A stretch of DNA of 11,574 bases from Escherichia coli. Lineage in GTDB: Bacteria; Pseudomonadota; Gammaproteobacteria; Enterobacterales; Enterobacteriaceae. This document shows positions 2,230-3,415 of this stretch, in pieces. The notes beneath the pieces were generated by a model. That model saw only the letters and a program-made list of their open reading frames with translations, did not search any database and was not told the DNA's origin. Both the position numbers and the translations under genes were made by a program. Every line of letters starts with the position of its first letter. Position 1 is the first letter of the stretch. The stretch is from the NCBI RefSeq assembly GCF_003334315.1, contig NZ_QOWR01000085.1. One strand, 5' to 3'.

Positions 2230-2259
2230 TTGAGCGTCCAAAACAACGGTATATATAAT
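2230..2259 (+). promoter_or_regulatory. Candidate sigma70 promoter for the TolA-III-like lipoprotein genes
   Basis: TTGAGC (2230-2235), 18 nt spacer, TATAAT (2254-2259), about 30 nt upstream of the ATG at 2289. Motif match only. Confidence 0.35.
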
Positions 2260-2288
2260 CCTTTACTATATGACATATGTGAGGAAAA

Positions 2289-2717
2289 ATGGGTTTTCGT
2301 AGCGCATCAATTCTTACGTTGATTATTAGTGGGATTATTATCGGGTGCACTGATGCTGTATCGACAAATTATCATGACCGTACATCATATTACTCCGATA
2401 AAGCAATAGAGACACAGTATGTGAGTTCATCTGAACGTACTTCTGATGTTAGTGAGGATATCCGTCTGTATGCCCATCAAATCAAGAGCGCCATCGAAAA
2501 ACAGTTCGGGGATGCGAGTAAGTATTCAGGAAAAGAGTGTACACTGAGAATGCATATGGCCCCGAATGGCCTTCTACTGGAGGTTAAAAGAGAAAGTGGA
2601 GACCTCGATTTATGTCGTGAAGCGATGAATGCGATAAAGAATGCTGATATACCTGCCCCCCCTTCGCCGGAAGTATATAAAGTATTTCAAAATGGGGTGC
2701 TGGATTTTAAACCCTGA
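2289..2717 (+). CDS. Lipoprotein with a TolA domain III-like C-terminal domain
   Basis: SD GAGGA then ATG; signal peptide with lipobox IIGC; C-terminus YAHQIKSAIEKQFGDASKYSGKECTLRMHMAPNGLLLEVKRESGDLDLCREAMNAIKNADIPAPPSPEVYKVFQNGVLDFKP closely resembles the C-terminus of E. coli TolA as I recall it (YAGQIKSAIESKF...CTLRIKLAPDG...ALCQAA...KIPKPPS..VYEVFKNAPLDFKP), including both Cys of the domain III disulfide. Confidence 0.8.
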   Translation: MGFRSASILTLIISGIIIGCTDAVSTNYHDRTSYYSDKAIETQYVSSSERTSDVSEDIRLYAHQIKSAIEKQFGDASKYSGKECTLRMHMAPNGLLLEVKRESGDLDLCREAMNAIKNADIPAPPSPEVYKVFQNGVLDFKP

Positions 2718-2867
2718 TATTTATTGTTTTGTAATAAACGGTTTCGGCTTAGGTTTGTTCTGACACAGCTACGGCACTGAGCTAAATTTAGCGGATAGTC
2801 AGCTCTGAGCCAGTGGCGGACGTAACAACTACTATTGCTGAGATTTTAATGGATTGAGGAGCAAGAA

Positions 2868-3263
2868 GTGGGATTAAAGAAAATCGTTATGTTGACTTTT
2901 TGGGGCGGTTTTGTTGCGGGATGCACACCTTTACACCCTTCAGATTGCCACAAAACTACTGCTACAGGTAGTTGCAGTTCAGGACGCTGGGATGATCAGG
3001 ATGAATGGGGGGCGCAAGCGCGGGGAATCAGAGCTGCAATTAATGCCAAACTTGATGAGCCGCATAACTGGAAAGGGAAAAAATGCAGGTTGCATATGGA
3101 ATTCTCTCAGGATGGCACGGCGTTAAAAATATCTACCAGTAACGGTGATAAAGCCTATTGCGAAGCGATAAAGTCCGCAGCTCATAAAGCCAAATTTCCG
3201 GCCTTCAACAATCCGGAAGTCTACAGAGATTTTCAGAAATCTGGCTTTGACATGCGAGGTTAG
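2868..3263 (+). CDS. Second lipoprotein with a TolA domain III-like C-terminal domain (divergent paralogue)
   Basis: GTG start preceded by GAGGAG; signal peptide with lipobox VAGC; C-terminus KKCRLHMEFSQDGTALKIS...YCEAIKSAAHKAKFPAFNNPEVYRDFQ keeps the Cys pair and the PEVY motif shared with the upstream paralogue and TolA. Confidence 0.7.
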   Translation: MGLKKIVMLTFWGGFVAGCTPLHPSDCHKTTATGSCSSGRWDDQDEWGAQARGIRAAINAKLDEPHNWKGKKCRLHMEFSQDGTALKISTSNGDKAYCEAIKSAAHKAKFPAFNNPEVYRDFQKSGFDMRG

Positions 3264-3388
3264 CTCTTCAATTACTATATCTCATTCATAGCAAACTGAC
3301 AGATTTGATGATGTTCTATATACGAAACCTGTGATGTCAAGTCTGAGCTAATACAAATAAACATAATATCAGAGAAATACATTTTATT

Positions 3389-3415
3389 AGCTCGCTACGG
3401 CGAGCTTTTTATATT
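3389..3415 (+). terminator. Rho-independent terminator downstream of the lipoprotein pair
   Basis: AGCTCGC-TACG-GCGAGCT followed by TTTTATATT. Confidence 0.5.

Follow-up and report, generated by a model that had tools for sequence, protein, structure and literature searches.

We conclude that two adjacent genes in a stretch of Escherichia coli DNA of 11,574 nucleotides (contig NZ_QOWR01000085.1 of assembly GCF_003334315.1; "the window" below means this whole stretch) encode lipoproteins that carry a copy of the C-terminal domain III of TolA (TolA-III), and that neither product is TolA. The window is the late region of a Rac-like lambdoid E. coli prophage. The genes, here called gene 1 and gene 2, sit in it as a moron: in related prophages the same slot holds stx or other cargo, and the block to which the genes belong is mosaic. 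As had been proposed from the letters of the window without database searches (the sequence-only reading), they lie between a Q-like gene (phrog_753) on the 5' side and the holin, endolysin, and Rz/Rz1 genes on the 3' side. Our preferred interpretation of their function, offered tentatively, is that the products are outer-membrane-tethered TolA-III decoys that compete with TolA for its β-strand-addition ligands, chiefly the group A colicins and the g3p protein of filamentous phages. The two genes and the candidate signals around them are as follows.

2230-2259, + strand: sigma-70-like promoter candidate of gene 1 (TTGAGC-18-TATAAT; 10/12 in a consensus scan)
2281-2285, + strand: Shine-Dalgarno sequence of gene 1 (GAGGA), read from the sequence
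2289-2717, + strand: gene 1, ATG start, lipoprotein of 142 amino acids (aa) with a TolA domain III copy
2760-2788, + strand: promoter-like site in the spacer between gene 1 and gene 2 (CTGACA-17-TAAATT; 9/12 in the scan)
2856-2861, + strand: Shine-Dalgarno sequence of gene 2 (GAGGAG), read from the sequence and kept in plasmid copies
2868-3263, + strand: gene 2, GTG start, lipoprotein of 131 aa with a diverged TolA domain III copy
3389-3415, + strand: intrinsic-terminator-like hairpin (3389-3406; AGCTCGC-TACG-GCGAGCT; 7 pairs, 5 of them GC, loop of 4) and T-run, 3' of gene 2

The sequence-only reading had described two paralogous lipoprotein genes, and both open reading frames are present. The product of gene 1 consists of a signal peptide (aa 1-19), the lipobox IIGC with Cys20, a disordered linker (aa 21-53), and TolA-III (aa 54-142); that of gene 2 consists of a signal peptide (aa 1-18), the lipobox VAGC with Cys19, a Cys-loop segment (aa 20-45, with C27 and C36), and TolA-III (aa 46-131). 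Both signal peptides conform to a PROSITE-type lipoprotein rule (K/R in the first 7 residues, a hydrophobic core, and the lipobox Cys), and the residue at +2 is Thr in both proteins, in agreement with the earlier statement that the lipoboxes IIGC and VAGC are not followed by Asp. Lol-dependent sorting to the outer membrane is predicted for both, on the single ground that the +2 residue is not Asp. The domain is preceded by a linker of 26-33 low-confidence residues in each protein. In gene 2, the segment that follows the lipidated Cys (2925-3002; TPLHPSDCHKTTATGSCSSGRWDDQDEWG) contains two conserved Cys residues, and AlphaFold confidence in it is low.

The assignment to TolA-III is carried by profile, sequence, and fold comparisons. 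The Pfam TolA model PF06519 matches gene 1 at 3.2e-23 (residues 49-140, model positions 4-96 of 96) and gene 2 at 1.5e-14 (residues 44-125, model positions 10-92 of 96). NCBIfam TolA models are matched by their C-terminal ~95 positions only (265-362 or 293-386), and the scores of 107.8 and 54.2 miss the PRK09510 cut-off of 213. In phmmer searches against the Protein Data Bank (PDB), residues 55-142 of gene 1 align without gaps to residues 334-421 of E. coli TolA (5e-28, 59% identity), and residues 50-129 of gene 2 align, also without gaps, to TolA residues 340-419 (5e-9, 34% identity). AlphaFold2 models the domain with a pLDDT above 95 in gene 1 and above 90 in gene 2, the N-terminal 45-53 residues being of low confidence. 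When these models were compared with the PDB by Foldseek, that of gene 1 superimposed on 2x9a_B with a root mean square deviation of 0.6 Å and a TMt of 0.96 (0.6-0.7 Å across TolA-III entries), and that of gene 2 on 2x9a_B/3qdp with a deviation of 1.1 Å and a TMt of ~0.9. The top PDB matches were TolA-III only, including g3p-bound (1tol and 2x9a) and ColA-bound (3qdr) forms, and TonB C-terminal domains came far behind (E above 1e-3). 2X9A is the complex of the If1 g3p with TolA-III. The domain III copy that the sequence-only reading had recognized in both proteins is thus borne out, also at the level of structure. The Cys363/Cys388 disulphide pair is kept in both, and the tail PEVYKVFQNGVLDFKP is found in gene 1. 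The two paralogues share 29% identity (BLASTP, 5e-18), close to the earlier estimate of about 30%. Both lack features of full-length TolA, namely, the inner-membrane anchor, the long helical domain II, and the tol-pal operon setting.

Small proteins that combine a lipoprotein signal with TolA-III form a wide family. A search of 1.84 billion representative proteins returned 129 matches, 92 of them at least 100 aa long; 52 of these are 100-175 aa in length and have a lipobox. Of 45 aligned family members, at least 90% have the lipobox Cys. Some of the lipoproteins are encoded by stand-alone chromosomal genes with housekeeping neighbors, and others lie in phage-like DNA.

What the domain might bind can be judged from the residues by which TolA-III engages its partners. 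Strand β3 of TolA-III (L417 D418 F419 K420 P421) is the strand-addition site for the N-terminus of TolB, for colicin N (ColN), and for the N1 domain of g3p (g3p-N1), and the substitutions D418P or K420P abolish binding of TolB, ColN, and g3p (PMC4339652). Colicin A (ColA) pairs with strand β2 (L375-P380) and makes cation-π contacts to K368, K379, and K396 (PMC3365938). In the alignment to TolA, β3 is identical in gene 1 (LDFKP) and conservatively changed in gene 2 (FDMRG), and across the family the β3 residues are equally conserved in the 52 lipoproteins and in long TolA-like proteins. Gene 1 retains most of the ColA site (H, LLEVKR, K), whereas in gene 2 most of these residues have changed (E, ALKIST, H). 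At the position of TolA Tyr353, gene 1 has Gly and gene 2 has Asp. In the numbering used for the TolB-interaction mutants, which is offset by one (as V407/V408 confirms), this Tyr is Y352. Across the family, the position is occupied by Tyr in 13/20 long TolA-like proteins and in 8/52 lipoproteins (Fisher p of 8e-5, not corrected for phylogeny). Literature values for the affinity of TolB for TolA-III are weak (Kd ~40-200 µM), whereas g3p-N1 and ColN bind at ~1 µM, and this difference would favor competition by a decoy. A docking edge that is kept, together with an affinity for host TolB that may have been lost, would be the pattern that a decoy needs, and we regard it as a lead and not as proof; the loss of Tyr353 is a possible way to avoid self-harm. 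The suggestion in the sequence-only reading that the paralogues have different targets is plausible, given that the ColA contacts are largely kept in gene 1 and changed in gene 2, and that gene 2 has an extra, constrained Cys-loop.

Both genes are under purifying selection. The ratio of nonsynonymous to synonymous substitution (dN/dS), calculated by the Nei-Gojobori method from variants with at least half-saturated synonymous sites, is ~0.25 in the domain of gene 1 and 0.33-0.57 in its linker, which therefore behaves as a spacer. In gene 2, the ratio is 0.08-0.13 in the domain and 0.02-0.10 in the segment of aa 20-45. This segment is thus under stricter constraint than the TolA-III domain of the same protein, and it behaves as a second functional module. 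Because the genes are under purifying selection, the call made for gene 1 by the annotation pipeline PGAP (RefSeq NZ_CP104618), that of a tolA pseudogene which is "incomplete, missing N-terminus," is wrong. PGAP starts gene 2 at Met8, which cuts off the basic n-region of the signal peptide and is in our view also wrong, and plasmid orthologues of gene 2 are annotated 12 codons too long. All these calls look like systematic mis-annotation. Whatever the function may be, gene 1 stands mis-annotated as a pseudogene in RefSeq genomes. The TolA-III domain itself is already recognized by annotation pipelines, and PHROG 5772, which covers these proteins, is labeled "unknown function."

The genes are common in E. 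coli and move as a moron across prophages and plasmids. By blastn, gene 1 is present in 898 of 5,426 complete E. coli genomes, almost always on the chromosome, and the pair of gene 1 and gene 2 in 774. All 5,426 genomes carry tolA, and the search with gene 1 did not detect the host gene; gene 1 is therefore not a recent copy of host tolA. The region 2100-3500 of the window matches phage mEp460_ev081 at 99.8% identity and many E. coli chromosomes at 100%, and the GC content of the two genes is 42-46%. Among IMG/VR loci of the 97-98% group, gene 1 stands beside gene 2 in 35/35, and the holin gene accompanies them in 32/35, while the block is surrounded by Q, endolysin, and Rz genes of types that vary from locus to locus, which marks the block of gene 1, gene 2, and holin as a mosaic module. 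Only 1 of 50,697 deposited phage genomes has the genes. Variants of gene 1 with 65-74% identity occupy the stx position of Stx-like prophages, in the order Q, methylase and tRNA genes, the gene itself, a nanS-p-type esterase, and the holin.

An orthologue of gene 2 with 87% identity is found on ~600 E. coli and Shigella plasmids. It lies directly 3' of a nikB-type relaxase gene in conjugative IncI1/B/O-type plasmids and adjoins a nikB remnant in pO157. The name yggA of IncI1 plasmids was considered for this orthologue and rejected, as yggA lies on the opposite side of nikA and is another gene. A "tail fiber protein" of CP-933O is linked to TolA in a remark in PMC11125564; no connection to gene 1 or gene 2 could be established, and the remark was set aside. 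Other gene 2 variants stand alone, beside umuDC-like genes or beside an O-antigen acetylase gene. A relative with 60% identity to gene 2 (locus L016, 324-4822) lies just 3' of genes for a C39-peptidase ABC exporter and an HlyD-type protein, a bacteriocin/microcin export pair; this neighborhood could be due to chance or could be a link to bacteriocin biology. Further afield, ~300 Klebsiella plasmids carry a TolA-III lipoprotein with 35% identity; the one inspected (NZ_CP091585) is IncFII. In that plasmid (locus L005, 6217-7246), the lipoprotein gene, with the lipobox ITAC, is directly 3' of a thioredoxin-fold gene. The two may form a unit in which disulphide formation serves the Cys pair.

For expression, the candidate promoter, the two genes, and the terminator-like hairpin would together make a classical moron layout. 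The CTGACA block of the second promoter-like site is conserved, with its flanks, 5' of plasmid orthologues of gene 2. The promoter and terminator that the sequence-only reading had assigned to the unit were both recovered as sequence matches. The promoter scan discriminates weakly, with 11 promoter-like sites in 2.6 kb compared to 6.5±2.5 in shuffled sequence. Strong late expression is likely, because both genes lie within the Q-dependent late unit.

Thus, we propose that two lipoproteins, made in lysogens and in plasmid hosts, would be anchored in the outer membrane and face the periplasm, each on a short tether. As ligands that normally dock on TolA-III reach the inner face of the outer membrane, the lipoproteins would capture them. 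Candidate ligands are the translocation domains of group A colicins (for gene 1, those of ColA, ColN, and E1/K type) and the g3p N1 domain of pilus-specific filamentous phages. The decoys, having neither domain I nor domain II of TolA, could not transmit force or couple to TolQR, so a bound colicin or phage tip would be neither pulled nor handed on, uptake would stall, and the lysogen or plasmid host would be tolerant. The two paralogues would probably cover different ligands. As a precedent, isolated TolA-III in the periplasm disturbs the function of Tol. Levengood-Freyermuth and colleagues are said to have found in 1993 that periplasmic TolA-III makes cells colicin-tolerant. The pili of conjugative plasmids expose their hosts to filamentous phages that need TolA-III. 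The structural half of the sequence-only reading, that of paralogous TolA-III lipoproteins in a moron between Q and the lysis genes, has been upheld; with its functional half, the retained β3 strand, the ColA site of gene 1, the selection on both genes, and the orthologues on conjugative plasmids are consistent, and we infer from them ligand binding and a protective phenotype. With still greater reserve, we suggest as a general picture that TolA co-receptor mimics tethered to the outer membrane are disseminated by the mobile elements of enterobacteria and would confer colicin tolerance and/or resistance to pilus-specific filamentous phages, the paralogues being tuned to different invaders and affinity for TolB having been lost so that the envelope stays intact.

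Several points weigh against the proposed decoy function. Retention of β3 could allow a decoy to bind the N-terminus of TolB as well, to the detriment of its host. The contrast between lipoproteins and long TolA-like proteins at position 353 does not take phylogeny into account. Production in lysogens is predicted from consensus-level promoter matches, and the candidate promoter of gene 1 is not conserved 5' of other gene 1 variants, whose upstream regions fail to align, so that the promoter proposed in the sequence-only reading stays a candidate. As the genes are in the Q-dependent late unit, their main expression could fall in lytic growth. Nuclease E colicins bind TolB and not TolA, and a pure TolA decoy would give no direct block against them. 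Filamentous phages are not lethal, which limits selection for resistance. Since some family members are chromosomal and have housekeeping neighbors, the role of the family may be physiological and not defensive. Finally, PADLOC gave no match for these proteins, and full-text literature searches found no study of them.

The tethered domain might act on the host's own Tol-Pal system instead. By binding the TolB N-terminus (or CpoB), it would damp the mobilization of Pal, so that the outer membrane is loosened and vesiculation or leakiness rises; the outcome would be either easier phage release late in infection or an Rcs/capsule induction that alters the surface and blocks other phages. Such a role would suit genes that lie in the late operon just 5' of the holin gene and move with it, and that retain β3, the docking strand for TolB. 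In the work of Wan and Baneyx, to the extent that it is used in PMC6195910, export of TolA-III to the periplasm leads to leakage of periplasmic proteins, and a review of Tol-Pal holds that modulated TolB interactions could regulate vesicle production. However, close relatives occur on plasmids and at chromosomal or non-lysis moron sites, where a weaker envelope is without obvious benefit. Both proteins, like most lipoproteins of the family, have another residue in place of the TolB-linked Tyr, the affinity between TolB and TolA is low, and the phage already has Rz/Rz1 spanins for outer-membrane disruption. We consider modulation of Tol-Pal unlikely. A role in lysis only is down-weighted in particular because of the relatives on plasmids and chromosomes; this weakens the late outer-membrane destabilizer that the sequence-only reading had offered as its alternative, and what still speaks for it is the late-operon position and the holin linkage.

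Rather improbable, in our view, is a diverged specificity in which the TolA/TonB-type fold serves as a generic strand-addition binder for some other target, especially in gene 2. Candidate targets include a part of the conjugation apparatus, a part of a tailed phage that is entering the cell, and a protein or receptor of the outer membrane that would be blocked from its periplasmic face, in the way that T5 Llp and Cor act on FhuA. The 34% identity of gene 2 to TolA-III, the loss of most of its ColA-contact residues, and the strong constraint on aa 20-45 (C27/C36), which implies a second functional module, would all fit, as would the variant next to an O-antigen acetylase gene, a typical surface-modifying exclusion gene, and the plasmid orthologue next to a relaxase gene. 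Against this, the sequence and fold matches are specific to TolA-III, with TonB C-terminal domains far worse, and gene 1 is a near-exact copy of TolA-III. In addition, the IncB/O/K/Z plasmid pMS7163B showed no loss of conjugation when transposons had inserted in the gene just 3' of nikB (logFC +0.39), that gene being identified as the TolA-III gene by position and size only. We attach very little probability to the idea that gene 1 and gene 2 are non-functional remnants, captured tolA fragments decaying in a defective prophage. The PGAP pseudogene label on gene 1 and the partial degradation of the prophage, with IS1 in a putative portal gene, point that way. Yet the frames, ribosome-binding sites, and lipoboxes are intact or good, the dN/dS values of the variants lie well under 1, 52 diverged representatives of the family share the architecture, and the DNA of gene 1 is too distant from host tolA for blastn to connect the two. 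The pseudogene reading is ruled out by the dN/dS values and the conserved architecture.

The moron site is bounded by the following genes.

702-1244, + strand: Q-like late antiterminator gene (phrog_753 "anti-termination protein Q-like," 2e-79); upstream boundary
3515-3730, + strand: holin gene (phrog_9876 and phrog_20 holin; essD in the PGAP record); downstream boundary
3730-4227: endolysin, lysis cassette
4224-4688 and 4444-4629: Rz and Rz1 spanins, lysis cassette

The interval 41-1244 holds NinB-like, HNH-like, and Q-like antiterminator genes, the last encoding a DUF1133 family protein according to PGAP (identical region of NZ_CP104618). It is followed by ~1 kb without long open reading frames, in which an STnc100-type RNA element (Rfam RF02076) is matched at 1992-2178 (+) with 86.6 bits, just 5' of gene 1. 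An STnc100 element is also found 5' of the TolA-III gene in mEp460, and a Stx-like prophage has five of them, one that directly follows the TolA-III gene and a tandem array of four that precedes the nanS-p-type esterase gene; further coordinates are 5889-6079 in locus L001, and 5469-5681 and 7440-8419 in locus L009. STnc100 looks like a repeated structured element of the late region between Q and S that flanks morons. Closer to the Q-like gene, an isrK-like match at 1278-1351 (+) is below threshold (21.6 bits against a gathering score of 50) and ends in a strong terminator, AAAAAAACCGCTTAATGCGGTTTTTTT, ~100 nucleotides 3' of that gene. As a candidate late-promoter leader/tR', this site may be where Q acts. 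Another pair of promoter and terminator lies at 1615-1691.

On the 3' side of the spanin genes are trkG, a ParB-like gene, terminase, and a putative portal gene cut by IS1. The trkG gene (4826-6283, +; GC content of 37.8%) encodes a TrkH-family potassium transporter and is a second cargo gene, flanked by the spanin genes and the ParB-like gene as it is in the Rac prophage. An open reading frame at 7184-8137 (+), which overlaps the end of the ParB-like gene, matches phrog_842 "beta-glucosyl-HMC-alpha-glucosyltransferase" at 1e-103 and has no NCBIfam match; a function of this type is odd for a lambdoid late region. A fragment of an IS1 transposase gene at 11137-11514 (-; NF033558, 6.7e-36) interrupts the open reading frame at 10707-11126 after the gene for the large terminase. 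This frame, which has no NCBIfam match, is taken to be the portal gene from its position only. With IS1 interrupting this putative portal gene, the prophage copy is defective.

If the genes do encode decoys, an unrecognized determinant of colicin tolerance or filamentous-phage resistance would be present in about 1 in 6 sequenced E. coli strains and on hundreds of plasmids, among them pO157 and IncFII resistance plasmids of Klebsiella. There would be consequences for bacteriocin-based therapeutics, for phage display and strategies that direct plasmid-dependent phages against resistance plasmids, for the ecology of colicin warfare in the gut, and for the functions that fill the stx slot in non-toxigenic relatives of Stx phages. 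The family would moreover be a source of natural TolA-III variants in which the binding of TolB is uncoupled from that of colicins and g3p, and it would exemplify defense by imitation of a host entry factor and not by blocking or modifying a receptor.

The products of gene 1 and gene 2 resemble several known systems and differ from each in definable ways. With E. coli TolA-III (PDB 1TOL, 1S62, 3QDP/3QDR, and 2X9A) they share the fold, the disulphide pair, a gapless alignment, and the β3 strand. TolA as a whole, the force transducer of Tol-Pal, has domain I, domain II, and a place in the tol-pal operon, whereas gene 1 and gene 2 have none of these and carry the domain on a lipoprotein tether of 26-33 residues, with the TolB-linked Tyr replaced. 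Constructs in which a signal peptide is joined to TolA-III (Levengood-Freyermuth 1993; Wan and Baneyx 1998) are alike in being isolated periplasmic TolA-III uncoupled from TolQR, but they are laboratory-made, soluble, and overproduced and have the host's own sequence, while gene 1 and gene 2 are natural, of lipoprotein type, diverged, and mobile. T5 Llp, Cor of φ80/N15/mEp phages, TraT, and TrbK are small outer-membrane lipoproteins that are encoded in moron-type positions on mobile elements and shield the cell that carries them from phages, DNA, or toxins coming in, as is proposed for gene 1 and gene 2. They have no sequence relationship to gene 1 and gene 2 (no PADLOC match), and Llp and Cor block the receptor FhuA, whereas the proteins described here would imitate a periplasmic co-receptor of the host. 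Like stx and the other morons between Q and S of lambdoid phages, these genes use the same slot, with gene 1 variants replacing stx between tRNA genes and nanS-p, but the cargo is an envelope lipoprotein and not a toxin. Overall, we hypothesize that gene 1 and gene 2 represent an exclusion lipoprotein of mobile elements that is built from a co-receptor domain of the host.

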